Shown piece by piece: positions 6,188-54,649 of a DNA stretch of 64,000 bases. Made by a program: the position numbers and the translations under genes. The notes below the pieces were generated by a model, which was not told where the DNA came from, ran no database searches, and saw only the letters and a list, made by a program, of their open reading frames with translations. How positions within the stretch are numbered: position 1 is the stretch's first letter; each line of letters starts with the position of its first letter. Source of the stretch: Candidatus Binataceae bacterium (GTDB taxonomy: Bacteria > Desulfobacterota > Binatia > Binatales > Binataceae); contig CAWCTG010000007.1 in the NCBI GenBank assembly GCA_963798375.1, forward strand, positions 7,851 to 71,850, read 5' to 3'.

Positions 6188-8866
<2,679 letters not shown>

Positions 8867-9097
8867 CTTATATGAGCGATTTTCGCGGCAAGTTTGAGAT
8901 TAGGTTCTCGACGAGCCACCGCGATGCGATCTGACCGGTGACACAGTGAAACAACTCCGCAAGTTTAGCTGGAAATCATCTTATCCCGAAATCGGCCGGG
9001 TAGGCAGGGGGCGCTGCGCCAGTTTGCTGGAATCCAAAAACGCTGGAGATTCAGGCGGGATTCGACGGGGACTCTGTGGGATGTAGTGGGGGTCGCG

Positions 9098-9113
9098 TTG
9101 CGTTGCAACGCAA
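9098..9113. promoter_or_regulatory. perfect 16-bp palindrome TTGCGTTGCAACGCAA (operator-like), overlapping a putative -35
   Basis: Read directly from the sequence. It lies about 30 nt upstream of the small ORF at 9144. A TTGCAA...N17...TAAATG promoter-like spacing overlaps it. Confidence 0.4.
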
Positions 9114-9143
9114 GCTGTCGCACAATAAATGGTATTGACCACT

Positions 9144-9389
9144 ATGGCGAAAACGACAAAATACAGGGCCGTGGCCCGTCAAAACGGTAACGCCGGCGTT
9201 ATCGTCAAATTGAGCCGGAGCGAGATTCTCAGTTCGCTTGAAAAGGGAGCGCGCGATCGCGTTGGCATGTCCGCACGGCTCATGCTGCGCAGATATCGGC
9301 AGGGGAGATTGCCCGACCCCACCAGCGTAGGCGACCTGATTGCGCTCTCCAATTTGCTTCGCAAGAATGATCCGATTCTTGCCGAGTAA
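9144..9389 (+). CDS. hypothetical small protein (81 aa), first gene of a lower-GC two-gene cassette
   Basis: ORF in a roughly 53% GC patch. No recognisable family. Start taken at MAKTTKYR, because the first ATG (9129) falls inside the putative -10. Confidence 0.45.
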   Translation: MAKTTKYRAVARQNGNAGVIVKLSRSEILSSLEKGARDRVGMSARLMLRRYRQGRLPDPTSVGDLIALSNLLRKNDPILAE

Positions 9390-9434
9390 TTTCCGATCGC
9401 CAGCCTCGACAATCTGCTAGCCGATATCAGGGAT

Positions 9435-10016
9435 TTGACGCGCTCATGCAGGCGCGGCGACAAGGACTCGCCCCAGGCGTTCTGCGACTTGTTGAATCTT
9501 CTTTTGGCGAACACCGTGATGGCGGTCGGGGCCAGTCTACGTCTTCAACAAGGAGAGCGTCGAAACAACTATATTGTCGCAGGGCGGCTTCTGGCCCCTG
9601 TCCAGCTGAGAGATGGGAAATTTCTCCGCGTCTATTATGGTCTCGCTATCCATGGCACTCCTGAAGGACCGACACTCAGGGTAATTAATTCCGGGTTCAA
9701 ATATCAGATTGATTTGGACGGCAAGCGCTGGGTTTTTCGTTACGACTACGACCGATTTCCCCGGCGCCCGTATCCGCCAACGCATTTTCACATACGCGGT
9801 GATTTGAAAGAAAACTGCCTGCCCGTTGGGGAAGCGCTGCAAACTATCCATTTCCCAGCTACCCGCGTTTCGTTAGAGGCAGTAATCAGGCTCTTGATCG
9901 ATCAATTTGGAGTATCCCCGGCAACACTGCGCGGTACATGGCGAAAGCTTTTGGCCAAGAGCGAGGCGGACTTCCTGGACATCGCGCATCGCGGACTTTC
10001 GGGGCCTAAACGCTGA
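9435..10016 (+). CDS. hypothetical protein (about 165-193 aa; start ambiguous, TTG at 9435 or ATG at 9519)
   Basis: Clean ORF at about 50% GC, 45 nt after the previous gene. No recognisable domain. Contains ...RYDYDRFPRRPYPPTHFHIRGD... Confidence 0.5.
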   Translation: MTRSCRRGDKDSPQAFCDLLNLLLANTVMAVGASLRLQQGERRNNYIVAGRLLAPVQLRDGKFLRVYYGLAIHGTPEGPTLRVINSGFKYQIDLDGKRWVFRYDYDRFPRRPYPPTHFHIRGDLKENCLPVGEALQTIHFPATRVSLEAVIRLLIDQFGVSPATLRGTWRKLLAKSEADFLDIAHRGLSGPKR

Positions 10017-10070
10017 GCGATTTCAATTCAGGGCACTTGCCCACCCACACCGGTCTTAAGAGCGGGTTTG

Positions 10071-10943
10071 CTAGCGCTCGATGCGGACCGCGGATTCGAC
10101 CTGCGGGCCGAGAAATCTGCGGCCGACGCGGACAAAACGATCAGGGGTCTCGGTCACGAAGAAACTCTGAACCCCTTTGCCGGTGCGCCGGGCGAGCTTG
10201 AGAATCCGCAGCCGATCGCGCACGTCGGCCGCGGTCGCGGTCGCGGAGTCCACGATCTTCACGCGTGGCCCAAGAATTCGCGCGAACATATCGCGCAGCA
10301 GCGGGTAATGCGTGCATCCCAGCAGCAGAGTGTCGATGCCGCTCTGCTTGAGACTCTCGAGGTAGTGGGCGACGGTCAATTCCGCGACCGCATTGTCGGT
10401 CCATCCTTCTTCGGCCAGCGGCACCAGCAGCGGGCATGCGCGCGTGTAGATTTCGGAGCGCGGGCTGAGCCGCTGGATCGCGCGCGTGTAAGCGCCGGAC
10501 GCGATCGTTGCCTCGGTGCCGATCACGCCTATTTTGCCGTTGCGCGAGGCCTTGGCGGCGGCGCGCGCGCCCGGCTCGATCACGCCGATCACGGGGATCA
10601 TCGTGTCCGACGCGATTGCGTCGAGCGCGACCGCGCTGGACGTGTTGCAGGCGACCACCAGCATTTTGATTCCCTTGGCGAGCAGGAAGCCGGTGTTCTC
10701 CTTCGAGTAGCGGACGATGACTTCGTTGGATTTCGTGCCGTAGGGGAGCCGCGCCGTGTCGCCGAGGTAGATGAAATCTTCATTGGGCAGCGCCGCGGTC
10801 AGCGCTTTGAGGACGGTGAGTCCGCCGATGCCCGAATCGAACACGCCGATGGGCCGGTCGATCGCCGCGCGCGAGCCGCGAAGAAGCCCGTTGGAAGCCG
10901 CGATCGAATTCGGCCGTGTTGCAGATTTTTTGCGGGTCGGCAT
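10071..10943 (-). CDS. murI: glutamate racemase
   Basis: IGVFDSGIGGLTVL and ...VACNTSS...GCTHYPLL motifs. Confidence 0.9.
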   Translation of the reverse strand: MPTRKKSATRPNSIAASNGLLRGSRAAIDRPIGVFDSGIGGLTVLKALTAALPNEDFIYLGDTARLPYGTKSNEVIVRYSKENTGFLLAKGIKMLVVACNTSSAVALDAIASDTMIPVIGVIEPGARAAAKASRNGKIGVIGTEATIASGAYTRAIQRLSPRSEIYTRACPLLVPLAEEGWTDNAVAELTVAHYLESLKQSGIDTLLLGCTHYPLLRDMFARILGPRVKIVDSATATAADVRDRLRILKLARRTGKGVQSFFVTETPDRFVRVGRRFLGPQVESAVRIER

Positions 10944-10970: not shown

Positions 10971-12599
10971 TCAGCCGCGCGCGAGGCGTTCGCCGATTGT
11001 AGCCGGTCGGGAGGGCGCCGCGCCAAAGACGCTTTCATGGACGCTGGCCGCTTCCATGCACAGATAGGCGGGGATCTCCGCGCCCGCTTTTCGGAAACGA
11101 TCGGCAAGCGTGCGGTAAAGACTGAGGCGCAGCGGCGTGAAGGTCCGAAAGCGCCCGTCGGAGGCGAGCACGTCCTCGCCGCACAGCATCGGATCGCCGG
11201 GAAAACGGCTGCGCGCGGCGCCGCGCAACCGCGGCGTCATCCGGAGGCCGCCCATGCTGATGAACGAGATTTGTTGGGGCGCAACTGTGTCCAGCAGCTC
11301 GTCGATCAGCAGCAGGTAATCGCGCTCGGCGCCCGGATATGCGATCAACGGATCGAGATGAAACGCCACGCGGTAGCCGGCGTCGAGGACCGCGCGCGCC
11401 GCCGCGATTCGCGCCGCCGGCGCGGCGGTGAGATGCTCCGAGCTCCGATAGACGGCGTCCGGCGACAAGGTCCACGAGACGAGCACGCGGCCGCGCGGGT
11501 CCATGCCAAGAAGATTTTCAATTTCGTCGGTCTTGGTCTTGAGCTCGAGGGTCAGATTCTCGCGCGAGGCAAAAAAATCGACCAGCTCGCGGCTAATCGA
11601 GGTAAGCGAGTCGAACGCGAGCGAGTCCGCCAGTTCACCGGTGCCGACGCGGAAGCTGCGCCCGCGAGCGTTGGCGATCAGCCGGTCGAGCTCGTCGAAT
11701 GAATCGGTGAAATTCGCATATACCTGGAAGGCGGGATTGTCAGCCAGATATTCCTGCAGAAAGCAGTACGAGCAATCCATCGGGCAGTTCGATGCGAGCG
11801 TGAGCACCAGGTATCCGCAGCAGGCGAAGCTGGGGGAACCCGCATGACACGGCATCAGGAACGGAGTCTTGCGCCGCGCGATCACCATCCGGCGTTTGCC
11901 GGCCCCGAACGGATCGCGCGCGCCCGATGCGGGCCGGGCCGCCTCGCGCGCGTCGGCGACATGCGTGACGGGCACATGGCGCGGAAGCGCGCGCAGGATG
12001 CGAGTCGCCAGCGGATAGCCGGCGCATCCGTGCTCGACAAACACCGCGTCGAGATCAAATTTCACTTTCTTGCCGCCGAGCATTTCAATAATCCTTGTCA
12101 GTCCCGGGCGCGATCGATCGACCGCCTCGAGCAGATGCGCCAGTTCGGCGGCGCTTCGCACCCGAAGCGAAACCGTGAGCTCATCAGAGCCAAGCTCGTT
12201 GGGCAAGACCACCGAAATTCCGCGGGGAAGCTTCAGCGCCGCGACTTCAGAGCGCAGTTGCTCCTGCATTTTCTTAAGGAGAGGGTAGCGAAGCGTTCGA
12301 AGCGCTTCCAGGAGCGCGCTCGCGCGCGACGGCGCGGAGCCGGGACCGCCTGCAATGCGCCTGATCTCGGGGCGGCCGAGAACGCCGGCGACGGTGACGT
12401 GCTCGCGCACGGCGATTTCCTCGAGCGTCTCGAGCGCGGTCATCAGTTGACCGGTCCGGATGCGGATGACGCGCGCGATATCGAGCATCGCGGCGCGCGA
12501 CGCCGGGTCCATCGCGAGCCATCGCGCAAGATGGCTCGGCGGCAGCCGTCGCTCGGCCGCGAGCATCCGAATCTGCGCGTCGATCTCGTCAGCATTCAT
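10971..12599 (-). CDS. radical SAM protein, spore photoproduct lyase (SplB)-like DNA repair photolyase homologue with about 170-aa N-terminal extension
   Basis: CPMDCSYCFLQ is the CxxxCxxC radical-SAM cluster motif. KVKFDLDAVFVEHGCAGYPLA aligns with the SplB N-terminus. The ATG at 12599 overlaps the GT2 stop (ATGA). An alternative internal start at 12083 has a good AAGGA Shine-Dalgarno. Confidence 0.7.
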   Translation of the reverse strand: MNADEIDAQIRMLAAERRLPPSHLARWLAMDPASRAAMLDIARVIRIRTGQLMTALETLEEIAVREHVTVAGVLGRPEIRRIAGGPGSAPSRASALLEALRTLRYPLLKKMQEQLRSEVAALKLPRGISVVLPNELGSDELTVSLRVRSAAELAHLLEAVDRSRPGLTRIIEMLGGKKVKFDLDAVFVEHGCAGYPLATRILRALPRHVPVTHVADAREAARPASGARDPFGAGKRRMVIARRKTPFLMPCHAGSPSFACCGYLVLTLASNCPMDCSYCFLQEYLADNPAFQVYANFTDSFDELDRLIANARGRSFRVGTGELADSLAFDSLTSISRELVDFFASRENLTLELKTKTDEIENLLGMDPRGRVLVSWTLSPDAVYRSSEHLTAAPAARIAAARAVLDAGYRVAFHLDPLIAYPGAERDYLLLIDELLDTVAPQQISFISMGGLRMTPRLRGAARSRFPGDPMLCGEDVLASDGRFRTFTPLRLSLYRTLADRFRKAGAEIPAYLCMEAASVHESVFGAAPSRPATIGERLARG

Positions 12600-13525
12600 G
12601 TGCAATTTCGCGAAGCATGGATCGCATCGACGCGAAGCATGGATCGCATCGATTCAACCGCGCATCCGATTTCAGGAGCCGCACGCGTATCCCAGCCTCG
12701 CGCCTGGTCAGCGATCCATTCGTACAGTCGCGCCTCATCGATTCTGGCTCGTCGCCGAAGGCCGCGCGCGTAGATGCGGCATTTTTCGGCGAGTACTTCG
12801 ACGACCGAGGTTCGCCGCGCCGGAGAAAGCCTGTTGTCCGCGAGCAATTTTGCAAGCGCGAGAATGCGGAAGCGATCGAGGGCAGGAGTGGTGGCCGAGG
12901 TTTGATCGGGATGCCCGCCGCGGCGTGTCACCAGCGGCTCGTCGAGCAGGCCGGCTTCATGGTCGATAAGAATTCGCAGCCACAGATCGTAGTCTTCGGC
13001 GGCGGTCATGTGCTCGTCGAAGCCGCCGGATGAGCGGAAAAGTTCGGCGCGTATCATCACCGACGACATACCGATCAGGCAGGTGCGGAGCGAGTCGATG
13101 AAAATATCGCCGGCGCGCTTGCGATGGCGGTGACCGGGATTCACGCGCCGCCCGTTGCGGATCCAGATTTCGCCGGTTTGCGAGATCGCGCAGCCGGGGT
13201 TGTCGCGCATGAACGCGAGCTGGCGTTCGAGCTTGGTTGGCGACCAGAGATCGTCGGAATCCAGGAATGCGATCAGCGGCGCGCGCGCCAGGGCGACGCC
13301 GCGGTTTCGCGCCGCGGCGGGACCGCGATGATCGATGCGCTCGATTCGGATCGTTTCGGACATCCGCCTCAAACGTTCGTTTTCGCTGGTTCCGTCGGTC
13401 GAGCCGTCGTCGATGACGATCAACTCGAACGCCGGGGCCGATTGGGCGAGCACGGAAGCGATCGCCTCGAGCAGCATCGCGCATCGATTGTAAGCCGGGA
13501 TAATTACCGAAACTTCGGGAGTCAT
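12596..13525 (-). CDS. glycosyltransferase family 2
   Basis: VSVIIPAYN...LIVIDDGSTDGT N-terminal GT-A signature and a DxD-like motif. Confidence 0.85.
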   Translation of the reverse strand: MTPEVSVIIPAYNRCAMLLEAIASVLAQSAPAFELIVIDDGSTDGTSENERLRRMSETIRIERIDHRGPAAARNRGVALARAPLIAFLDSDDLWSPTKLERQLAFMRDNPGCAISQTGEIWIRNGRRVNPGHRHRKRAGDIFIDSLRTCLIGMSSVMIRAELFRSSGGFDEHMTAAEDYDLWLRILIDHEAGLLDEPLVTRRGGHPDQTSATTPALDRFRILALAKLLADNRLSPARRTSVVEVLAEKCRIYARGLRRRARIDEARLYEWIADQARGWDTRAAPEIGCAVESMRSMLRVDAIHASRNCT

Positions 13526-14180: not shown

Positions 14181-14780
14181 TTAGGGTTCGTCGTCACTTG
14201 AGTTGCCCTCGTCGGCAGTCTTGATGTTGAGGGTGCGCTTCAAGGTTTCGAGCTGCGCGACGAAGATGCCGCGAATGACTTGCTTGATGACGCCGTCAGG
14301 GACGGGAAGCGACTGCAGCAGATGCGTGGTTTCGTGGTAGTCGATGAACGTGCTCGCGCCTTCATCGCCGAGCTGGTACACGGCCTGAGTATCGAGCAGC
14401 GGATTGTTGACGGTGTGATAGACGATCTTTTTCTGGTCGGGCAGGTACTCGAACTCGAGCTCGGTGGTAATCGTTTGTCCGCCCGGTCCCGCGATATCCA
14501 TGTCGACGGTCTTTTTATTGCCGCTCTGGGATACGACGCGCACCGCCTTGACCTGATCGTTGTGCGTATTTTCGATGTCGCGAATCGCGGCGAAGACGGT
14601 CTGCTCGGGGGCCGGTATGCGCGCGGTGAAATCGGCCTGCCAGACGTCGCCGTCATGCCCGATGTTCTCGGTGAGCAGGCCGGCCTGCCGCGCGCGATGA
14701 ATTTGATAGTAATGCCATCCCACGATCGCGACGACTGCGAGAACGATCACTCCAGCCAGGATTTTGAGTACCGTCTTCAT
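14181..14780 (-). CDS. hypothetical membrane-anchored protein (possible SRPBCC-like fold)
   Basis: N-terminal TM helix followed by a soluble domain. No confident family assignment. Confidence 0.5.
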   Translation of the reverse strand: MKTVLKILAGVIVLAVVAIVGWHYYQIHRARQAGLLTENIGHDGDVWQADFTARIPAPEQTVFAAIRDIENTHNDQVKAVRVVSQSGNKKTVDMDIAGPGGQTITTELEFEYLPDQKKIVYHTVNNPLLDTQAVYQLGDEGASTFIDYHETTHLLQSLPVPDGVIKQVIRGIFVAQLETLKRTLNIKTADEGNSSDDEP

Positions 14781-14798
14781 CGACGAATCGCCTTCAGC

Positions 14799-15332
14799 TC
14801 ATCGTTCGAATGTGCCGACCAATTCCGCGGTCGCGACGACGTGACCGCTCATCGCGGACTGGATCGCGGCCGCGTCCGCCGGGTCGCCGGGAGTCAACGT
14901 CGAGTCCAGCGCGAAGAGATGAAAATGATAGTGATGCATTTTTCCCGGCGGCGGACACGGTCCATTGTAGCCGATATGCTCGAAGCCGTTGATTCCATTT
15001 GTTCCGCCGTCCGCGATTTTCGCGGTTTGCGGCACGCCTGCCGGCAGCGAAGTTGCGCGAGCCGGAATATTGTACGCCACCCAATGAACAAATGTTCCAC
15101 CGGGGGCGTCAGGATCATCGACGATCAATGCGAATGATTTCGTCGATTGCGGCGCATCGCTCCATGCGAGCGCGGGGGACCGATCGGCGCCAGTACATGC
15201 GTAGTCATCGGCAATTGCGGCTCCGGAAGCGATCGCGGTGCTGGTCAGCCTCAGTTGGGCTTGGGCGGGTTGCGCTTTAGCAAGGCCAAGCAAGGCAAAG
15301 ATTAGAAAAATTGAAATTTGGACATTTGGCAT
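14799..15332 (-). CDS. YbhB/YbcL family Raf-kinase-inhibitor-like (PEBP) protein
   Basis: Signal peptide plus DDPDAP...HWVAYNIP...YHFHLFALD PEBP motifs. Confidence 0.85.
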   Translation of the reverse strand: MPNVQISIFLIFALLGLAKAQPAQAQLRLTSTAIASGAAIADDYACTGADRSPALAWSDAPQSTKSFALIVDDPDAPGGTFVHWVAYNIPARATSLPAGVPQTAKIADGGTNGINGFEHIGYNGPCPPPGKMHHYHFHLFALDSTLTPGDPADAAAIQSAMSGHVVATAELVGTFER

Positions 15333-15627
15333 GCTTATGACATCATTTCAAGGCGCTTGCAGGCATGGTTTAGAGTATTGACAGGCATTTTGTTATCGAA
15401 ATCTCTGCAAGAATAGCTGGCTTCACATGCAATAAGGGAGTGGAACGCGAAAAGTACCAGAAATCCCCTTAGGCTGCTCTTGACAGCCAGTGATGATTAT
15501 GACACGCTCAAACAAGCTCATAGTGGACGTAACGGGCGGATGAATCATTTGATCGATGTGATCGATGCGAAAAAAGGCATCAAATCCAGGCAGTAGGCGA
15601 CAGACGGGGATGTTGCCGGGGAATATC

Positions 15628-15852
15628 ATGGCTAGTGAAACCAAGTATAGCTTGCCGCGCGTGATGACGGTCAAGGAATTGTCCGAATATCTGCGCGTGC
15701 ATCCATCGACTATCTACAAGCTGCTTCGTCGCGGAGAGCTGCCGGGCTTTCGGATCGGCACCGATTGGCGTTTCAACGCCGAGGTGATCGACCGTTGGTG
15801 TCTGGAGCGAAACATGAAAGCTCCGGACGGCGGCACCTCCAGCCAGAACTGA
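15628..15852 (+). CDS. excisionase-family helix-turn-helix DNA-binding protein (paralogue of the gene at 40199)
   Basis: MTVKELSEYLRVHPSTIYKLLRRGELPGFRIGTDWRF is the excisionase/MerR-like HTH. About 70% identical to the ORF at 40199. Preceded by a roughly 300-nt AT-rich leader. Confidence 0.7.
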   Translation: MASETKYSLPRVMTVKELSEYLRVHPSTIYKLLRRGELPGFRIGTDWRFNAEVIDRWCLERNMKAPDGGTSSQN

Positions 15853-16090
15853 CGCGCGCGATCGTCGAGTCGCGCGCGCCCGGCGCCAGCCGGGACGCGA
15901 ATGCGGAGCAGTCTCCGTCGCCGCACAGACGCGCTTCATATCTCGCACTGGGCGCCTCGCGCTTGACCCAGGCACCGCAGTGCCTCACCTACCGATCGTT
16001 CAGATGATATCGCCAGTTCGCAAGGCGCTGGCTCCGCAGCGGCGCCCGGACGCGCGGCGCTCAGCTGAATCAGCGGAACAATGTTCGTGA

Positions 16091-27880: not shown

Positions 27881-29257
27881 TCAGATCATCTGCTTGCCGC
27901 TGGCCCATCGCAGGTAAAAGAACATTCCGAGGCCATAGACCGCCGCGATCAGAAAAAAGACCGCGCTGAACGACCTGGTCGCCTGCACAATCAGGCCCGT
28001 TGCAGCGACGCCGATAATGCCGGGGATGGTCGCGATGGTGTTCGAGATTCCCATCAGGATTCCGGCGTAGGTCGGGGCGACGTCAAGGTGATTCACCCCG
28101 AAGGCCGCGGAACTGATGCCGTTAGCCGAGGCTGCGACCGTCAGCAGCGCAACCGCCATCGCCGGCGAACCCGCTGCGGGCACTACCATCAGCGATATCG
28201 CACCGATCGCAAATGCCGTGCTCTGCATCGACTTGCGTACCGTCCCGACGCCGAGGCCGCGCGCGATCAGGGCGTCGGCCAGCCAGCCCGAGAAACTTAT
28301 CGTGAAGAACGTGGCGATCCATGGAATTATCGAATACCGGCCGACACGTTCCAGCGGCACGCCAAACGTGTGATGCAGATAGGTCGGCAGCCAGAGCAGC
28401 AGAATGTTAAACCCGAAGTTGCTGCAAAAATGCGCGACGACGATCGCCCATACTGCTCTCTCGCGCGCGATTGCCGCCCACGGTACCCGGACCGCGCGCG
28501 GCGCTGCCGAGCGCAACGACATGATCAGTTCGAGTTCGGCGGCGCCGATGCGCGATGACGTCTCAGGCCGGTCGGCGGCCATGTACATCCAGACTACGAC
28601 CCATGCTGCGCCGAGCGCGCCCGAAATATAGAACAGCGCAGGCCATCCGAGAGACGTGATAATCAGCGGGCTTGCACTGAGCGCCGCGACTGTGCCCACG
28701 TACATCCCACTATAGTTGACAGATAACACGCGCGCGCGCTCGGACGGCAACGTCCAGCGAGCCGTCAGACTGTGAATCGATGGGAAGTTCACCCCCTCGC
28801 CCAGCCCGAGCAGCACGCGAGCCGCGAGCAGCGCGGAAAATCCCGCGGCAGCGGCCAAAGGCGTAACGAAGGTTGCCAGCGACCAGATCGCGACCCCGGC
28901 CGCCAGCACGCGATGGCCGCCGAATCGATCCGCCATCCATCCACCGACGAGCTGCGTCCACAGGTATCCCCAGAACACCGCCGACAGCACCAGCCCCTGC
29001 GCGGCGGAGTTGTAGCCGAATTGGCGGGCGAGCGGGATTATCGCGACCGAGATGCTGATGCGATCGATGTAGCAAAGCGCGGTGCCGAGAAAGAATAGCG
29101 CGACGACCGTATAGCGTTGCGGCCATCGCGGAATTCCAGCCGGGGTATCGCGCGCACGTGCAGGCTCGCCCATGATGCAGTGGAGCTTAGGCTGTGCGAG
29201 GCAATCTTGACCAGACCGGCGATTTTGGCGCGCGCAAGAAAAAGACGCGGGAGGCAT
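27881..29257 (-). CDS. MFS transporter
   Basis: 12 TM helices and the MFS signature G..ADRFG. Confidence 0.8.
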   Translation of the reverse strand: MPPASFSCARQNRRSGQDCLAQPKLHCIMGEPARARDTPAGIPRWPQRYTVVALFFLGTALCYIDRISISVAIIPLARQFGYNSAAQGLVLSAVFWGYLWTQLVGGWMADRFGGHRVLAAGVAIWSLATFVTPLAAAAGFSALLAARVLLGLGEGVNFPSIHSLTARWTLPSERARVLSVNYSGMYVGTVAALSASPLIITSLGWPALFYISGALGAAWVVVWMYMAADRPETSSRIGAAELELIMSLRSAAPRAVRVPWAAIARERAVWAIVVAHFCSNFGFNILLLWLPTYLHHTFGVPLERVGRYSIIPWIATFFTISFSGWLADALIARGLGVGTVRKSMQSTAFAIGAISLMVVPAAGSPAMAVALLTVAASANGISSAAFGVNHLDVAPTYAGILMGISNTIATIPGIIGVAATGLIVQATRSFSAVFFLIAAVYGLGMFFYLRWASGKQMI

Positions 29258-29320
29258 TCCTCTCGCGTCTTTAAGGAATCGGTTGCGCTTAAAGGTCGAA
29301 TCAGCGCTGCGGATACTTCA

Positions 29321-29749
29321 CTATCTTCCGACTGCGTGGCGCACGGTGTTCAGGATATAGATGAAGTCGCGCGCCGAACGCACATCGCCGAGCAACGCCA
29401 CTCGCGAAAGAATCTCCATCTCGTCGCCCGTAATGTTGTGAACGCGACGCAGTTGCTCGTTCTTCTTGAAATCATCCCAGGCCGAATCAGCCGCGGATTC
29501 GATTTCGGGACTCAGCAGCGCGTGCGCGCGAGGATTGGCGAGAAAGAACACTTCGCGGCGATTGAGTCCGAGTACTTCCGCCAGACGCGTTACAATCTTA
29601 TCGGAAGGATGGCGTTTGCCTGATTCCAAGTGGCCGACGTATGGCGTCGAGGTCTTGATGCGACGGGCTACTTCCTCTTGAGTGAGGTCCAGTTGCCGTC
29701 TGCGCTCACGGATGACCTGTCCAAAACTGCGTTCCTTGATGCGTGCCAT
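29321..29749 (-). CDS. XRE-family helix-turn-helix transcriptional regulator
   Basis: IRERRRQLDLTQEEVARRIKTSTPYVGHLESGKRHPS is a Cro/C1-type HTH. Start chosen at MARIKE. Confidence 0.7.
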   Translation of the reverse strand: MARIKERSFGQVIRERRRQLDLTQEEVARRIKTSTPYVGHLESGKRHPSDKIVTRLAEVLGLNRREVFFLANPRAHALLSPEIESAADSAWDDFKKNEQLRRVHNITGDEMEILSRVALLGDVRSARDFIYILNTVRHAVGR

Positions 29750-30036
29750 TGATGCTCTATTCCCCTTCCCCTTGTTGCGCCGATTTGGCGCGGTCCGTGA
29801 TACGGCCGTACCCTCATCAAAAAGGTGATATTCGACCCTTACAGTTAGTACCATCAAAATGACTTAAAGGCAAACGTACTGCGGGTGGGATTAGAGGGAC
29901 GCCTTCAACAGCGCCATAAGTTTGTGAATTGGGTCGTTCCGCAAATTGTTTGGGGTTCGCGACCTTAGGAATATTCAGTGCGAAGCGGACTTATTTTGCG
30001 AATAAGTGCTATTCATGCATTCACGGGCGATCTCTG

Positions 30037-30390
30037 TCAATTCCCGTAGGGATTTCGCCCATGATTGAGATAAATGGAAAAATCGGCGACGCCATCGTCG
30101 GCACGCGGTGGACTCTTGAAGTGCACGGCCGCTCCGCGACGGAGGCCGTCCACCGAAACGATGTCCTTGCCGATCGAGTGGCCGTCGCGATCGAAATAAT
30201 GGACTTCGACCTGGAGAGGACCTGTGTCGTCGCCTGTGTTGCGAACCTCGCCTTCGACCAACACCCGGCCGCCGCTTCGCACCAAGCGAGTTTCGGCCAC
30301 CTTGACCGGTTCCGAGCCGACCAAGGCGAAGAACACGTAGCCCGCGAAGCATAGCGCGCCGAGCAGAACGATGATCGCGCCTTTACGCAT
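30037..30390 (-). CDS. hypothetical membrane-anchored protein
   Basis: N-terminal TM helix and a beta-rich soluble domain. No family assignment. Confidence 0.4.
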   Translation of the reverse strand: MRKGAIIVLLGALCFAGYVFFALVGSEPVKVAETRLVRSGGRVLVEGEVRNTGDDTGPLQVEVHYFDRDGHSIGKDIVSVDGLRRGAAVHFKSPPRADDGVADFSIYLNHGRNPYGN

Positions 30391-30808
30391 GCGCGGCACA
30401 GGCTCGTACATGCTCGAGCCGGTATTCGTCCGGGAAGTTCGCGCACGGCAGGCGCAGCTGCCCGACGAACTCGTCCTGGGCCTCGGTCAATTCAAAATTC
30501 ATGTTGCAACCCCGTTGAGATTGGAATGTTTCCGCGCGCTTTGCGAGCTGTGGATAGCTAATCAATTTCAATGTTCATGATCGAGCGTTAAATGTGATTA
30601 ACTGCGCGGCAAATGCATCATATTCGTGCATCACCAGCATCTACCGCCGGCCGAAATTCAGCGCCGATACTAAGGATTTTCAGCGTCGTTCAATTATTAC
30701 CCCGGTATGAATCTTGAAACCAACTGGCCGGTTCATCACCGTAGCCCGCTACGTGTGGGCGCAGGAAGCCGCGGCTTAAGGCCGCGCATCTCAGGAGGGA
30801 GGAGAAGA

Positions 30809-32281
30809 GTGAACAGAAGGAAAACGACCCGAGTCGCTGCCAGGCTTCGCCCAATCATCGGCGTCGCAGTGATTGGATTGCTGTGCAACGCGAATGCCTG
30901 GGCACAAACGACGACAACGACGACGACGAAACATCACCACAAGACGGTCACGACAACCACCGTAGTCGCAAGCACCAGCGAGCAGCAGCGGCTCGACGCG
31001 CTGTCCGGCCAGGTGAACAATCTGCAGAAGCAGACCGACGACACAACCAGCGAGGTGAAAAAGATAGAGGCAGCGATGACGGTCGCACAGCCGGCGGCTT
31101 CCGCGTCGCCGGTCACCATCGGCCAGCATGTCGGCCTGGCCGAGACGAACATCGCCGCCATCCAGAAGAATCTGTCGGACAACCTTGGTATCAGCGTCCA
31201 CGCGCTGGTTGATGCGGGCTACGAGCACAACTTCAATCAGCCGAACGGCAACGTCAATACGTTTCGCGAGTGGGACGTGGACGGATTTCGCTTACCCAGG
31301 GCAACCTGCACATCGAGCGCGATGGAACGGTTGGATTCGTGACCGACCTCAACTTCGGTCAGGTCGCGAACTCGATTTCATCCGTTACAAACTACTCGAA
31401 CGTGCCGGGGTCGCATGTCAGCGGGCAGTGGATCGATCCGACGCAGTACTACCTGACCTATACGGCTCCGCTCGGTTCGGGCATAAGTTTCGAAGGCGGC
31501 CGTTTCGTGACGTCTGTTGGGCGCCGAGATTGTTCCGGTTTACAACAACCAGAATTACAACGAGAGCCGTGGCCTGCTCTATACCCTGGGCGAACCAATC
31601 GCTCATACGGGCATCCGCGCCAGCTACACGTTCAACGACTACGTATCGGCTACAGCCGGGCTGAACAACGGTTGGGATGATCCCGCGAGCACCAACAACG
31701 GTGGTCCGAACTATGAGGGTGAGCTCACACTCAACAACAAAGACAAGTCTCTGAGCCTTGTAGTCAACGGCATCTGGGGACCGAATGTTCAGCCCTCGAA
31801 CACGGTGAGTATCCCGCCCGGCAAAACGCACTCCAATATGAATCTGGGCGCGATCGATCCGATCGCGACGTGGAAGCCGTCGTCGTTCGTACCCAACCTG
31901 ACGCTGCAGGCCGAATACCTGTATGCATCCCAGAGCGGTCCTGTAACGGCCGACGGTCACAGCGCGACGTGGCAGGGCGCGGCGGGGTACCTAGTGTATG
32001 ATTTCACCCCTTCGTTTGAAACGGCAACCCGCGCCGAATTCTTCGACGACATGGACGGGGCGCGCACCAATGGCGAGACGCAGACCCTGTGGGAGATCAC
32101 CCAGACAATCAGCTACAAGGTACCGGAAGTGACGGGGCTGATCGCACGTCTGGAATACCGGCATGACAATTCGAGTCAGAACTCGTTCACGAACAACAAT
32201 TTCGTGGACCCGGCGACCGGAGCGCAGCATCTATGGCACGGCCAGGATACCTTGGCCGCCAACCTCATTTACGCCTTCTAA
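30809..32281 (+). pseudogene. porin-like outer-membrane beta-barrel protein with N-terminal coiled coil; reading frame broken twice (about 31290 and about 31520)
   Basis: GGAGGGAGGAG Shine-Dalgarno, signal peptide, Thr-rich linker and coiled coil. Alternating beta-strand pattern, ends ...NLIYAF (C-terminal Phe). Three consecutive ORFs in frames 2, 1, 2 read as one protein. Confidence 0.6.
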
Positions 32282-42246: not shown

Positions 42247-43410
42247 ATGAGTTTAAGCCGCAAAACCGCAGTGGCCGGCGTGTATGAGCATCCTACCCGC
42301 TTCGCGCCGGACAAAAGTCTGTTTCAGATAATGGCGGAGAGCGTGCGTGGCGCGCTGGACGACGCCGGGTTGACGATCAAGGACGTGAACGGGCTGTGCA
42401 CGACCGGAATCGGGATGAGCGGGATGGGAATCGTCGGCTTCTGCGATTACCTGAACCTGACGCCGAACTTTGTCGACTCGACTTCGATCGGCGGGTCGTC
42501 GTTTGTGGCGCACACCGCGCACGCGGCGGCCGCTATCCACGCCGGGCTGTGCGACGTATGCGTGGTGGCGTATGGCTCTACCGCGGCCTCGTCGCGGTTT
42601 GCGATTGGCACCGGCGGAGACCGCGGCGGCGCAGGCGATCCGTGCGACCAGTACGAGATTCCGTTCGGGCCGACTACCGTCGGGGCGTACGCGATGATCG
42701 CGCAGCGCCATATGCATGACTACGGGACGACCTCCGAGCAGCTGGCCGAAATAGCGGTCACGATGCGCCTGCATGCGTCCATGAATCCGGCCGCCAAGTA
42801 CCGCGACCCGATCACGGTGGAAGACGTGCTCGCGTCGCGAATCATCTCGTCGCCGCTGCATCTGCTGGATTGCTGCATCATCAGCGACGGCGGCGGCGCG
42901 TTGGTGATAACGTCGGCGGAGCGCGCGCGCGATTTGAAGAAAAAGCCGGTTTACATTCTCGGCGCGGGCGAGACGGTGCGGCACGCGGCGCGCGGGCAGC
43001 GCGATTTTCTGGAAATCGCGGCGGCGCAATCGGGACGGCTGGCGTTCGAGCGCGCCGGCGTCGCGCACAAGGACATCGACATGGCGATGATCTACGACTC
43101 GTTCACGATCACCGTGCTGGCCACGCTGGAGAATCTCGGCTTTTGCAAGCGCGGCGAAGGCGGGGCGTTCGTGTCGGGCGGACGGCTGCGCTTCGACGGC
43201 GAATTTCCGATCAACACCGACGGCGGAGGGTTGTCGTCGAATCATCCGGGGATGCGCGGAATCTTCCTGGTGATCGAGGCGGCCAGACAACTGCGCGGCG
43301 AATGCGGTCCGCGGCAGGTAAAGGATTGCAAAATCGCACTCGCGCACGGCACCGGCGGCACGCTCGGCACGCGCCATTCGGGCGCGACGCTTATCCTCAG
43401 CAATCAGTAA
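42247..43410 (+). CDS. thiolase-like protein (SCP-x/Ltp2-type, probable aldolase/thiolase partner of DUF35)
   Basis: Thiolase fold motifs (…NTDGGGLS…, …GHP.G.TG…). It is immediately followed by a DUF35 gene, as in Ltp2-DUF35 retro-aldolase pairs. Confidence 0.8.
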   Translation: MSLSRKTAVAGVYEHPTRFAPDKSLFQIMAESVRGALDDAGLTIKDVNGLCTTGIGMSGMGIVGFCDYLNLTPNFVDSTSIGGSSFVAHTAHAAAAIHAGLCDVCVVAYGSTAASSRFAIGTGGDRGGAGDPCDQYEIPFGPTTVGAYAMIAQRHMHDYGTTSEQLAEIAVTMRLHASMNPAAKYRDPITVEDVLASRIISSPLHLLDCCIISDGGGALVITSAERARDLKKKPVYILGAGETVRHAARGQRDFLEIAAAQSGRLAFERAGVAHKDIDMAMIYDSFTITVLATLENLGFCKRGEGGAFVSGGRLRFDGEFPINTDGGGLSSNHPGMRGIFLVIEAARQLRGECGPRQVKDCKIALAHGTGGTLGTRHSGATLILSNQ

Positions 43411-51440: not shown

Positions 51441-51745
51441 GCGAGACGCGCTTGCGCGCGAGATCCTTCGGCTGTACTCAGCATGACACAAAAAACGCGC
51501 GCGCGGGCTCCTTCTTGATCAATCCCTTCTAACAGGGCGAAGCCCGCATCTTCTCTAACCGTCGGGTGCAGGGGTCGCCCCTGGCCGTTGGCACGGCTGG
51601 CCAGTAATAGGAGACCGCGCGCCCGTGGTTCTTCCATTGCGTAGTCACGAAAAGATGCGCTGCGCAGATTTTCGTGTCTTCTTAATACTGGGTGCAGAGC
51701 CTGTCCTGAGCGAAGCCGAAGGAGGTCACCCCTGCCCAAGGAGGT

Positions 51746-51768
51746 GCGGAACCCAGGGTGGGTTCCGC
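51746..51768 (+). other. stable hairpin GCGGAACCCA-ggg-TGGGTTCCGC at the high-GC/low-GC boundary
   Basis: 10-bp perfect stem. Followed by ATTTAATT and an abrupt fall in GC content. Confidence 0.4.
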
Positions 51769-51812
51769 ATTTAATTAAGTTCTCCCGTCGAACACTCCGG
51801 CGTCCGGCGTTG

Positions 51813-51843
51813 TGCAAAGGGAAGTATGCTGGTGTTGACTACC
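51813..51843. repeat. terminal inverted repeat (left)
   Basis: Reverse-complement match to 54166-54196 (about 29 of 31 positions). Confidence 0.65.
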
Positions 51844-51858
51844 AGCCCGTGAAGTGCG

Positions 51859-52140
51859 ATGATTCCGGCGATGAGGAACCAGACGAACCGCCTACACGTG
51901 CTGTTCGGATTGCTGGTCGATTTGGCGCGTTTGAGCTGCTTCTTTTTTCCGCCGTCTGGCGAACCGCTGCTTCTGGTTGCGGTAGTGGGGACTGGCCTTT
52001 TCCTCGTATCGCTTACACTTGTGGCAGTAGAAGAAGAGAATCTTTTGGGCGTATCCACTGCTCATGTCGCCAGTGTAGCGCGTTGTCAGCGTGCCGAAAA
52101 GCGCAGTACGATGCTCCAAGAGAACAACCCTCATGGCTGA
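51859..52140 (+). CDS. hypothetical small membrane protein (passenger ORF A)
   Basis: Hydrophobic stretch. The stop overlaps the start of the next gene (ATGGCTGA). The antisense 58-aa basic ORF at 51892-52065 is an alternative. Confidence 0.3.
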   Translation: MIPAMRNQTNRLHVLFGLLVDLARLSCFFFPPSGEPLLLVAVVGTGLFLVSLTLVAVEEENLLGVSTAHVASVARCQRAEKRSTMLQENNPHG

Positions 52141-52789
52141 CTCGAAATTTCGTGAATCTCTGCGTGATTTCCTTACGCAATACCCGTTGTGGACTGTGGT
52201 TGATCAGTTCCTCGATTCTAAATGGGGGAAAAGATTTCTCGCTCTTCTTGGGGGTGCTGTGTTGACCGGCATTGGGTGGATAGCTTCTCTCTTTACCGCC
52301 CTGAGCAGCGGTCTGAAATATGGACTTTTCGGTGCATTCGGCGCCTCTCTCTTTGCAGCCTTAGTCATCTATTTGACGAAAGAGAAAGAAATGACCATCA
52401 CAGCTAATACCAATATACATCGGACTATTACGCCTGAACAACGACAACTTTTTGCAGCTATGGTAAAGCGTTTAAGCCTACAAGATAAATCAGTTCATAT
52501 TAAAGGCTCAAAGCATGACGGGGAAATGCAAGATTATTGGCATACACTGGTCGAGCTATTCCGGGCGAACGGTATGGTCACGGGTGGTCAAATCGAAGAT
52601 TCTCCGTCCTATGATCCGCGTGGCTTAGTCCTTGTCGTGCAAGAACCGCAAGTTGATCGTCTCATAGGACATGCGAAAACCATTTTTGAATTGCTCCGCT
52701 CGGCGCAGATTCCTTTTGAGCTTGGCTACGATGGAAGGCCGAGACAGCAAGAAGGTTGGTGTTATTTATATGTAGGTCGTCGAAGCTAG
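52133..52789 (+). CDS. hypothetical protein with two N-terminal TM helices and a C-terminal soluble domain (passenger ORF B)
   Basis: 218-aa ORF in low-GC DNA with atypical codon usage. No recognisable family. Confidence 0.5.
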   Translation: MADSKFRESLRDFLTQYPLWTVVDQFLDSKWGKRFLALLGGAVLTGIGWIASLFTALSSGLKYGLFGAFGASLFAALVIYLTKEKEMTITANTNIHRTITPEQRQLFAAMVKRLSLQDKSVHIKGSKHDGEMQDYWHTLVELFRANGMVTGGQIEDSPSYDPRGLVLVVQEPQVDRLIGHAKTIFELLRSAQIPFELGYDGRPRQQEGWCYLYVGRRS

Positions 52790-53124
52790 TCGCCACGAAA
52801 CACATCACACAAATTTATTTTCTTATGAGCATAGCAATTATGAATCGTCTTTATACACGGCCCAAAGTACGCATCAAGCGCCCCGATACTGAGAAGCATC
52901 TCCGCGCGTTGGTCTTTCGCTCTCGCATAATCACTGATTGCTTGCAGTCGAAGCGGATTGCTACTAAAGTGACCTTCAAGCGCGGATTTCTCAGCGTACA
53001 GGCACAGAGCTTCGATACATATTATATTATCCTTCGTTGTGTCGCAGTCGAGCGCTCGCAAGTCCGGCGGAGCTATCGCTATCGTGCTGACCACTATAAG
53101 AGCCGTAAGCATGAGTCGCTTCAT
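52786..53124 (-). CDS. small secreted cysteine-rich protein (passenger ORF C)
   Basis: Signal peptide. Six Cys in about 90 mature residues. Convergent 4-nt overlap with ORF B. Confidence 0.5.
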   Translation of the reverse strand: MKRLMLTALIVVSTIAIAPPDLRALDCDTTKDNIICIEALCLYAEKSALEGHFSSNPLRLQAISDYARAKDQRAEMLLSIGALDAYFGPCIKTIHNCYAHKKINLCDVFRGD

Positions 53125-53211
53125 AGGTATCCTAAATCCTTGTACGTTTTCTTGTGCGCTGTTCGCTGGCGTCGTTCTCAGATAGCTGAGACATTCGCCA
53201 GTGTTCGTGTC

Positions 53212-54138
53212 TCAGCACCCTGCTATCGCTTTGCCGAATATATCGGCTTCTTTTCGATTGTTAAAACGGAATTGAAACTCATTCAGGTACAGCGGCAGAT
53301 GTTTCCTGCTAACATTGTGGTACGTCCCGATGATTCCGCGCTTGAGCAGCGCCCAAAACGAATCAATCGACTGAGTATGAACCTTGCCACGTACATATTC
53401 GCCAGCACTATGGCGGCCGCTCTCATGCCGGAATTTGTCACTCAGCTTTTGATTGCCGTATGCTTCATCGGTAGCAACCAATTCCACCCTGTCCGAAACA
53501 ACCCTGCGAACGAATCCATCGAGCGTCGGCGTATCGGTAGTCTCGATCATTTTGCAGACCACGTTGCCCTTACGGGAAATCGCGCCGATGACTGGCTGCT
53601 TGCCGGTCGTGCCTTTGGTGTTTGGGCCGATGCGCTTGCTGCGATGTTTGTTCTTTTCCTTTCCACCAATATACGTCTCATCAACTTCTACGATGCCCAT
53701 CAGTTGACGGAAATCGGGGTCGAACATACCGGCTCGCAGACGCATACACATATACCAAGCCGAGCGATACGAGCCGGTTCCAAGCAAACGATGAATCTGC
53801 AATGCGCTGATGCCCTTCTTGGAAGTCAGCATGAGCAGCAGAGTCTTAAACCACGAACGCAACGGCAGTTTGGTTTCCTCGAAGATCGTTCCGGTCTTGA
53901 GCGAGAAGCGATAAGGCGAGCGATTATCCTTGCCGCATTTCTTGCACTGCCAATGCCACGGACGCGCCGTGCTCTCATAAACGTGATCGTTATTGCAACG
54001 CGGGCATTTCGGGCCAGCGGGCCAGCGGCGCGAGAGCAGATACGTCCAGCACGATTGCTCGTCCGGGAACATCTGCTCGAAGTCGGAGAGCGTCATTTGT
54101 CGCGTAAATTTCGGTTCGTTTTCTTTCCAATCCTTCAT
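53212..54138 (-). CDS. IS1595 family transposase (ISXO2-like DDE domain with N-terminal transposase zinc-ribbon)
   Basis: ...WPAGPKCPRCNNDHVY...WQCKKCGK Zn ribbon, and an ISXO2-like region (...GIVEVDETYIGGKEKNKH...VATDEAYGNQKL...). Confidence 0.85.
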   Translation of the reverse strand: MKDWKENEPKFTRQMTLSDFEQMFPDEQSCWTYLLSRRWPAGPKCPRCNNDHVYESTARPWHWQCKKCGKDNRSPYRFSLKTGTIFEETKLPLRSWFKTLLLMLTSKKGISALQIHRLLGTGSYRSAWYMCMRLRAGMFDPDFRQLMGIVEVDETYIGGKEKNKHRSKRIGPNTKGTTGKQPVIGAISRKGNVVCKMIETTDTPTLDGFVRRVVSDRVELVATDEAYGNQKLSDKFRHESGRHSAGEYVRGKVHTQSIDSFWALLKRGIIGTYHNVSRKHLPLYLNEFQFRFNNRKEADIFGKAIAGC

Positions 54139-54165
54139 GATCCATATATTAGCAAAAAGCAGCGT

Positions 54166-54196
54166 GGTAGTCAACACCAGCATACTTCCCTATGCA
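54166..54196. repeat. terminal inverted repeat (right)
   Basis: GGTAGTCAACACCAGCATACTTCCCTATGCA is the reverse complement of the left inverted repeat. It is immediately followed by the hairpin GCTCTCC-ctgtga-GGAGAGC (54199-54218). Confidence 0.65.
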
Positions 54197-54228
54197 AAGC
54201 TCTCCCTGTGAGGAGAGCCTGGCAAGAA

Positions 54229-54345
54229 TCAGATCTTCTGATTCGTTTTGCGCCAGTCGGCGAGGAAGCGCTCAAGCCCGAGATCCGTCAGCGGATCATG
54301 CAGCGTCTGTTTGAGCACCGCGAACGGCACCGTCGCGATATCGGC
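54229..54345. repeat. degenerate direct copy A of the 3' end of the tal gene (about 92% identity to 55445-55561)
   Basis: Alignable base-by-base to the last ~115 nt of tal, including the stop codon. Confidence 0.75.
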
Positions 54346-54390
54346 AGCGATCCCGTCAAGCCGCTATTCGTGTTTCGTTCTCCTGAACTA

Positions 54391-54414
54391 AAAACGTTTC
54401 ACGTGAAACGTTTT
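54391..54414. repeat. 24-bp perfect palindrome AAAACGTTTCACGTGAAACGTTTT
   Basis: Read directly from the sequence. CACGTG core. Lies between tal-3' copies A and B. Confidence 0.7.
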
Positions 54415-54544
54415 CCTGAAAACCTTAGCAGCACAGCACCATTTTCGACCGCTTTTGAAAAAAGTGACTGCCATTGCACGTGCCTGCTTAACATTGGGCG
54501 CAGGGGCCAGCCCACCCACCTGAGTCAGAAGCAAGGACCGGAAG

Positions 54545-54649
54545 TTAGATCTTCTGATTCGTCTTGCGCCAGTCGGCCAGGAAGCGCTCGAGCCCGAGAT
54601 CCGTCAGCGGATGATGCAGCGTCTGTTTGAGCGCTGCGAACGGCACTGT
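54545..54649. repeat. degenerate direct copy B of the 3' end of the tal gene
   Basis: About 105 nt alignable to 55445-55550, with divergence after ...GAACGGCACTGT. Confidence 0.75.

Follow-up and report, generated by a model that had tools for sequence, protein, structure and literature searches.

Introduction

The closest described systems to the locus considered here are the TumE-TumA toxin-antitoxin (TA) pairs. As described by Durairaj et al. (Nature 2023, PMC10584680), TumE has a "dark" α+β fold in which two helices pack on a seven-stranded antiparallel β-sheet, a fold with no match in the PDB, and the TumE gene lies downstream of the gene for a small partner. TumE is toxic in Escherichia coli and is neutralised by its partner; translation is inhibited, and ribonuclease (RNase) activity has been proposed, not proven (PMC10584680). 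The tested TumE toxins are ~110–130 aa long, as estimated from the gene sizes in the supplement (PMC10584680). Here we describe a two-gene cassette, comprising gene 1 and gene 2, that lies between secA and murI in a stretch of 64,000 nucleotides from a Candidatus Binataceae contig (the window). The cassette is a recent insertion of a conserved gene pair, and the product of its larger gene appears, from profile matches, to be remotely similar to TumE.

Results

A two-gene cassette inserted between murI and secA

Both plus-strand open reading frames (ORFs) that an earlier sequence-only reading of the window had placed between secA and murI are present (Table 1). The secA and murI identity of the flanks is taken from Pfam matches of the syntenic copies in a close relative, locus L002. 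The cassette was recently inserted into the genome of a Binatus-like (Binatota) bacterium, in the short spacer between murI and secA. To survey this spacer, 80 metagenomic loci with MurI relatives (54–99% identity) were fetched, and MurI, SecA and both cassette proteins were located in each; 63 of the 80 contain enough sequence to be informative. In 58 of the 63, murI and secA are separated by 63–288 bp and neither cassette gene can be traced, and these empty sites include five (L023, L024, L027, L028 and L030) in which MurI is 97–98% and SecA 94–97% identical to the window's. The cassette is present in two informative loci, L022 (MurI 99% identical) and L026 (MurI 97%), and three have other, longer spacers. 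Because related murI-secA spacers lack the cassette, a conserved housekeeping role is ruled out; gene 1 and gene 2 are not conserved syntenic orthologues between secA and murI across the clade. The earlier proposal of a horizontally acquired, selfish-type two-gene module is strongly supported, both by the empty spacers and by the occurrence of the pair in unrelated phyla and varied contexts, described below.

The junctions were mapped by aligning the occupied sites (window, L022 and L026) with empty sites (L023, L028 and L030). The shared flank stops at ...GGCAGGGGG (9011) and picks up again at CCC(TG/AC)CACC (10040), and occupied and empty sites have in common the secA upstream region, 8867–9011, and the last 30 nt before the murI stop codon. 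The insertion point is flanked by the two arms of a short inverted repeat, CAGGGG...CCCTG. RNA folds at the insertion point and after gene 2 do not surpass those of shuffled sequence (z −0.6 to +0.8), giving neither a hairpin at the former nor a terminator at the latter, and a terminator scan found nothing relevant after gene 2. No terminal inverted repeats and no integrase, transposase or recombinase gene accompany the window cassette, and the only possible target-site duplication, the 5-bp CAGGG, is not significant.

The GC content of the insert is 55.0% (gene 1, 56.5%; gene 2, 54.6%), compared with 62.1% in secA, 64.9% in murI and 61.1% in the window, and only one in twenty 1-kb windows (5%) has a value as low as that of the insert. 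Third codon positions (GC3) show a sharper contrast, with 0.66 for gene 1 and 0.58 for gene 2 versus 0.85 and 0.82 for the flanks. The lower GC noted in the sequence-only reading is therefore real as a contrast with the flanks, the figure being 55.0% and not the 50–53% given there.

The murI 3′ end is also an insertion hot spot, with different small inserts in different relatives. L022, the closest relative, has an insert of ~370 bp (L022:2515-2945) that carries an orphan CopG_antitoxin gene (PF12441, 93.9 bits); it is flanked by a repeat of the last ~40 nt of murI, of which the second copy has diverged slightly. In the L026/L002 lineage an insert of 213 bp is present (L026:6821-7096), and a 63-nt stretch of the murI 3′ end, directly repeated at 86% identity, brackets it. 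The bracketing repeats in L022 and L026 suggest site-specific integration. Unrelated longer murI-secA spacers are found in further relatives (L031, 589 bp; L041, 288 bp; L036, 226 bp; L096, 406 bp; L087, 2056 bp), and the L031 insert (L031:3199-3788) has a 96-aa ORF with no Pfam match.

Conserved pairing of gene 1 and gene 2

A word-indexed search returned 74 homologues of gene 2, and 29 homologues were found for gene 1; all are unnamed or "hypothetical". The profile of the gene 2 family reaches 1278 representative clusters (50% identity) at E ≤ 1e-3 and 129 at E ≤ 1e-30. Among species-representative genomes, the gene 2 family is found in Binatia, Nitrospira, NC10/Methylomirabilales and Streptomyces, and the pair in at least four phyla; "Deltaproteobacteria bacterium palsa_1114" and Candidatus Binatus have gene 2 copies that are 90–91% identical. 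The order secA-gene 1-gene 2-murI recurs in close relatives (L002–L007, L009, L010, L022 and L026). Elsewhere the contexts vary, from phage capsid and terminase genes on a prophage-like contig (L102), a relaxase gene (L001) and an Abi-like Hypoth_Ymh gene (L103) to plain housekeeping genes (L106). No homologues were found in a plasmid collection searched with tblastn or in IMG/VR contigs.

The pairing of gene 1 with gene 2 is conserved. Wherever an intact gene 2 homologue was examined, a homologue of gene 1 sits directly upstream and abuts or overlaps it (~17 distinct loci), and the partner is kept even where gene 2 identity has fallen to 24–26%, in the form of an upstream 66–70-aa protein that conforms to the profile pattern of gene 1. 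Gene 2 stands without gene 1 only in L016 and L021, where the copies are remnants that have lost the N-terminal 70–100 residues. The two open frames are divided by just one stop codon in the window lineage, whereas elsewhere the genes overlap by 31–79 nt or more, and the reading-frame relation of the two genes varies among loci. Between the window and the L002/L009 lineage, the ratio of nonsynonymous to synonymous substitution rates (dN/dS) is 0.13–0.15 for gene 1 and 0.23–0.27 for gene 2; both genes are real and under purifying selection. The pair displays generic traits of type II TA systems, namely small, co-directional and nearly overlapping genes, a patchy, mobile distribution and, in the loci examined, the lack of any intact putative toxin gene standing alone.

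Remote similarity of protein 2 to TumE

Protein 2 is a basic protein (isoelectric point [pI] 10.1) with two conserved motifs, FRYDY..R.P...HP..H and HFP..R.SLEAVIRLL..QF. Invariant or near-invariant residues are H117, R102, Y90/Q91, P114, F140/P141, R144, E148, R152 and E177, of which H117 is invariant in 100 diverse family members. The AlphaFold2 (AF2) model (predicted local distance difference test score, 84.8; predicted template modelling score, 0.81) has seven strands, preceded by a helix at the N-terminus and followed by two at the C-terminus, and finds no fold match in the PDB or BFVD.

At the level of profile matches, protein 2 shows remote similarity to TumE. The window protein matches TumE (PF20126) with 14.2 bits (E = 0.046), which does not reach the gathering cut-off of 23.4 bits, and five homologues (P0003, P0009, P0012, P0015 and P0031) score 15.9–21.9 bits, also below it. 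PF20126 is nonetheless the only recurrent Pfam family, matching 15 of 34 close and 14 of 100 diverse members with a best E of 2e-5; extrapolated from this E-value, the best of the 100 diverse members would have ~25 bits and so probably just reaches the cut-off. In the five members with listed scores the matches are collinear, placing model positions 3–72 on the β-sheet core. The NCBIfam TumE model (NF045777) matches 2 of the 100 members (best E = 0.023). Neither PADLOC nor PHROGs yielded a significant match for the cassette proteins, and the best 150 matches listed in an exhaustive profile search all belong to the same family as gene 2. Gene 2 is a putative TumE-like toxin gene, and its product a probable distant and extended relative of TumE. 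The statement that neither product matches a recognised family thus holds for gene 1 and gives way, for gene 2, to this weak TumE match.

Charge pattern and predicted fold of protein 1

Protein 1 is sharply divided in charge, with a pI of 11.8 for residues 1–55 and 4.5 for residues 56–81. The acidic helix at its C-terminus, DLIALSNLLRKNDPILAE, hardly varies among close family members, and the overall pattern of the gene 1 family is LSR.EIV..LE..AR.R.G.SA...LRRYR.G.L.DP..V.DLIAL..LL...DP. The AF2 model has a strand at residues 16–21 and helices at 25–39, 44–53 and 59–73. The protein has no match in Pfam, NCBIfam, PADLOC or the PDB, and nothing significant in PHROGs; among 30 members of the gene 1 family, no ribbon-helix-helix (RHH) Pfam model matches at E ≤ 1.

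Comparison of the protein 1 family with CopG by hhalign, for which the CopG reference sequence was verified as that of PDB 2cpg/1b01, gives a probability of 39% (E = 3e-4) with the close alignment A2, which is suggestive, and of 8% (E = 4e-3) with the more diverse alignment A5. An RHH assignment of gene 1 was not adopted, in view of this drop and for want of Pfam or PDB support. We offer as a hypothesis, and not as a result, that the predicted fold resembles an RHH domain followed by a toxin-binding helix. The charge pattern makes protein 1 antitoxin-like and a putative antitoxin, with no family assignment. Its earlier description as a possible small DNA-binding protein was not borne out, as neither Pfam, the PDB nor hhalign could establish a DNA-binding fold.

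Spacer between the genes and the start of gene 2

The spacer between the two genes aligns with the N-termini of 210-aa homologues; other family members start there with ATG or TTG, and relative to L026 two of its three substitutions are synonymous in the frame of the two genes. The spacer, 9390–9434, contains no canonical start codon (ATG, GTG or TTG). Because it encodes the N-terminal helix of the family but lacks such a codon, the start of gene 2 is uncertain and may be the TTG at 9435, a non-canonical ATC or CTG upstream, or the ATG at 9519, the last being the start chosen by many gene callers for 165-aa homologues. Non-canonical initiation or reinitiation is a possibility. Since the two genes share a frame with one intervening TAA, stop-codon readthrough or an antitoxin-toxin fusion was also considered, and was rejected as in most other loci the frames differ and the genes overlap.

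A variable upstream segment with a palindrome

The sequence-only reading had described a perfect palindrome 30 nt before the ATG of gene 1, overlapping a sigma-70-like −35/−10 arrangement, as the classic layout of an autoregulated operator. The palindrome, TTGCGTTGCAACGCAA, is present. Perfect 16-bp palindromes are, however, found in the window at near-chance frequency (5 observed versus a mean of 2.4 expected from first-order Markov simulations), and this one is not conserved in relatives. In L022, whose gene 1 is 99% identical, the site reads TTGCGTTGCCGCGCAA, with two central changes and the outer 5-bp arms TTGCG...CGCAA kept. In the cassettes of L026, L002, L009 and L010, with gene 1 84–86% and gene 2 90–91% identical to the window's, positions 9020–9135 are unalignable, only ~10 nt at the start of the insert and ~10 nt just before the ATG being shared; this lineage has instead a TATAAT-containing stretch with a small palindrome, GTAGC-C-GCTAC. 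Among the family loci, TTGCG-N(0-14)-CGCAA is found upstream of gene 1 only in the window and L022, with a further occurrence 260 nt upstream in L014, and it was rejected as a conserved operator motif.

The promoter arrangement fared no better. A sigma-70 scan with a threshold of 9/12 gave no site overlapping the palindrome and none upstream of the ATG; its only promoter-like site, TTGACC-16-CAAAAT at 9135–9162, lies over the start codon of gene 1, and the best arrangement overlapping the palindrome that could be found by eye, TTGCGT-N17-CACAAT, agrees at 7/12. With the centre mutated in L022 and the whole promoter segment replaced in the other lineage, the reading of the site as a classic autoregulated operator is not supported. 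An RNA hairpin is possible in the palindrome region (−18.2 kcal/mol, z = −2.85). The rate of synonymous substitution (dS) is ~0.5 for gene 1, ~0.2 for gene 2 and 0.14–0.17 for the flanks; together with the swap of the promoter segment, the excess of gene 1 dS over gene 2 dS hints at recombination inside the cassette.

Features of the locus and of the rest of the window

Table 1. Coordinates of the cassette, its parts and its flanks in the window
Feature	Position	Strand	Basis and remarks
Gene 1	9144-9389	+	ORF, ATG to TAA, 81 aa; alternative ATG at 9129
Gene 2	9435-10016	+	ORF, TTG to TGA, 193 aa
Spacer between gene 1 and gene 2	9390-9434	+	In frame with both genes; encodes family N-terminal helix FPIASLDNLLADIRDL
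Inserted accessory cassette, ~1,028 bp	9012-10039	+	Alignment of occupied and empty sites; no counterpart in most related murI-secA spacers
Variable promoter/leader segment of cassette	9012-9143	+	Positions 9020-9135 unalignable to L026-type cassettes; many substitutions relative to L022
Perfect 16-bp palindrome TTGCGTTGCAACGCAA	9098-9113		Candidate protein-binding site, 30 nt before gene 1 ATG; not conserved
Native secA upstream region, outside insert	8867-9011	-	Conserved in occupied and empty sites
Native murI-secA spacer remnant beside murI stop codon	10040-10070		Aligns with empty-site CCCTGCACC...GCTAGCG
secA, housekeeping flank	6188-8866	-	ORF; syntenic L002 copy has SecA Pfam domains
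murI (glutamate racemase), housekeeping flank	10071-10943	-	ORF; syntenic L002 copy matches Asp_Glu_race

The gene that follows murI (10971–12605, minus strand) encodes a spore-photoproduct-lyase-like radical S-adenosylmethionine protein (PF20903, 89 bits); its ORF spans 544 aa versus a 364-aa call in relatives, and its start is therefore probably downstream. An IS1595-family transposase gene at 53212–54183 on the minus strand (PF12762, 132 bits, with zinc-ribbon PF12760) sits in the patch of lowest GC in the window (1-kb GC 46.6%), beside plus-strand ORFs at 51744–54630 that have no Pfam match. Two more patches, at ~14500–16000 and 29000–31000, have a cassette-like 1-kb GC of 53.5–54.3%. The only tRNA in the window is tRNA-Gln(CTG), at 42978–43066 on the plus strand, and an Rfam scan of the whole window gave no family at its gathering score.

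Discussion

We favour, with reasonable though far from full confidence, the view that the cassette is a mobile module of type II TA-like character, placed on the margin of the TumE-TumA superfamily. The toxin-antitoxin-like nature proposed in the sequence-only reading is still the best account of the pair, given that TumE is the only recurrent Pfam match and given the tight pairing and co-evolution of the two genes and the charge pattern; the DNA binding by protein 1 that went with it was not established. From these features we infer a scheme in which gene 1 would encode the cognate small partner of gene 2, a TumA-type antitoxin, and the two genes would share a transcript and be coupled in translation. 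Through its acidic C-terminal helix, protein 1 would bind and neutralise the basic protein 2, and its basic N-terminal part may bind DNA and repress the operon. Loss or degradation of protein 1 would free protein 2, whose toxicity would lead to growth arrest through inhibited translation. By analogy with TumE, protein 2 may be an RNase, with H117, R102, R144, E148 and R152 as candidate active-site residues.

Several results weigh against a TumE-TumA assignment. Every TumE score that was inspected individually, for the window protein and the five homologues alike, lies below the cut-off, the most divergent members of the gene 2 family have no TumE match of any kind, and canonical TumE proteins were not retrieved by the word-indexed profile search, which returned same-family members only. 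On the side of the partner, protein 1 matches no antitoxin or DNA-binding family, the RHH idea was weakened with the more diverse profile (from 39% to 8% in hhalign against CopG), and the palindrome is not conserved in relatives. As the main alternative, the pair could be a mobile accessory module other than a classical TA system, for instance a phage-defence or abortive-infection effector with a regulator or chaperone, or a small regulator with an enzyme of unknown function, and the likeness to TumE would then be spurious or confined to the fold. The subthreshold scores fit such a module, as do a gene 2 product ~70 residues longer than canonical TumE, the lack of a solved structure resembling protein 2, the concentration of H139, P141, R144, E148 and R152, among the most conserved residues, in the extra C-terminal helical part, and the Abi-like Hypoth_Ymh gene that adjoins one homologue. 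We regard it as a tenable but rather unlikely alternative: no PADLOC defence model matches either protein, TumE is the sole recurrent family among 134 members and maps collinearly, and strict pairing, gene overlap, truncated toxin-only remnants and charge complementarity make up the usual signature of a type II TA system. Less likely again would be a gene 2 family (~1,300 clusters at 50% identity, all annotated as hypothetical) that is not TumE at all but a separate basic family with a His/Arg/Glu motif and a fold unseen in solved structures. Accompanied by a dedicated 70–80-aa partner, it would amount to a new TA or defence superfamily with a new mechanism, carried by a recombinase-free cassette of a promoter and two genes that spreads into the murI 3′-end hot spot.

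The notion that the palindrome is an autoregulatory operator bound by a dimer of protein 1 is doubtful. The site is a perfect palindrome close to the ATG of gene 1 and falls in the one region where a promoter is plausible, protein 1 has a strongly basic N-terminus and a strand-helix-helix pattern, and the outer arms survive in L022; the L026 type, moreover, has another palindrome, GTAGC-C-GCTAC, within a promoter-like region of its own (TTGAGC-N18-TATTAT, read by eye), and TA operators evolve fast. Its near-chance frequency nevertheless speaks against such a role, as do two central substitutions where gene 1 is 99% identical, its absence from cassettes with an 84–86% identical protein 1 and from other family loci save for the distant L014 copy, the lack of an overlapping promoter consensus and the lack of a DNA-binding family for protein 1. 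Very improbable is a decaying, non-functional remnant in which gene 2 has lost its ancestral start codon. The window lineage does lack ATG, GTG or TTG at the usual start of the family, and truncated remnants exist elsewhere (L016 and L021), but both frames are intact, an in-frame TTG follows 15 codons further on, and dN/dS is 0.13–0.27 between lineages that share the missing start. Vertical inheritance of gene 1 and gene 2 as conserved housekeeping genes of the secA-murI region is scarcely credible; the shared gene order in close relatives and a gene 2 dS similar to that of the flanks would agree with it, yet 58 related genomes, some with a 97–98% identical MurI, have an uninterrupted short spacer, the pair also resides in unrelated phyla and contexts, and the GC3 of the cassette is about 20–25 points below that of its flanks.

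If the assignment to a TumE-TumA-like module is correct, a large unannotated branch of hundreds of clusters, from soil and peat Binatia, Nitrospira, NC10 and actinomycetes, would join the TumE-TumA superfamily, and its well-conserved cognate antitoxin family, together with H117, R102, R144, E148 and R152, could serve to test the catalytic mechanism proposed for TumE-type toxins. The locus also documents, for an uncultivated phylum, strain-level gain of a selfish-type cassette as a clean polymorphism of occupied and empty sites, and a hot spot for insertion between two core genes. No concept is changed, as it is common for mobile type II TA cassettes to sit among core genes. Elements of this kind are known, the cassette being type II TA-like and probably a member of the TumE superfamily described in 2023; the gene 2 family and its partner are unannotated and fall below curated thresholds.

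Comparison with known systems

In terms of genomic setting, the cassette resembles the strain-variable gene islets found at intergenic hot spots, in that the small inserts found at the murI 3′ end and in the spacer differ between L022 and L026; unlike such islets, the window cassette has no integrase, transposase or terminal inverted repeats. The type II TA systems with RHH antitoxins (RelBE, ParDE, CopG-type and BrnA) share with it an antitoxin-first order and overlapping or abutting genes. Protein 1 is likewise predicted to fold as strand-helix-helix at its basic N-terminus, followed by a C-terminal helix, and there is a local similarity between LEKMAREMGLSKSAM of protein 1 and LEKGARDRVGMSARLM of CopG. 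The likeness is limited by the lack of an RHH Pfam match and by the hhalign values (39%, and 8% with the diverse profile), and gene 2 is unrelated to RelE, ParE and BrnT.

With respect to TumE-TumA (DUF6516/PF20126), the window protein and the five individually scored homologues differ in falling below the curated cut-off, and gene 2 proteins have ~190–210 aa as against the estimated 110–130 aa. Protein 2 carries one more helix at its N-terminus and, at the C-terminal end, a helical extension that is highly conserved; because TumE proteins are shorter, the conserved C-terminal residues may be missing from canonical TumE. The gene 1 partner family could not be linked to any described TumA. In common with TumE-TumA, the cassette is bicistronic and its larger gene follows that of a small partner without a family assignment. 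Protein 2 is predicted to combine helices with seven strands in a fold without a PDB match, which would fit the published description of TumE. TumE is also the cassette's only recurrent match in Pfam and NCBIfam, where it falls on the β-sheet core, and the pair, like TumE-TumA, is mobile and patchily distributed.

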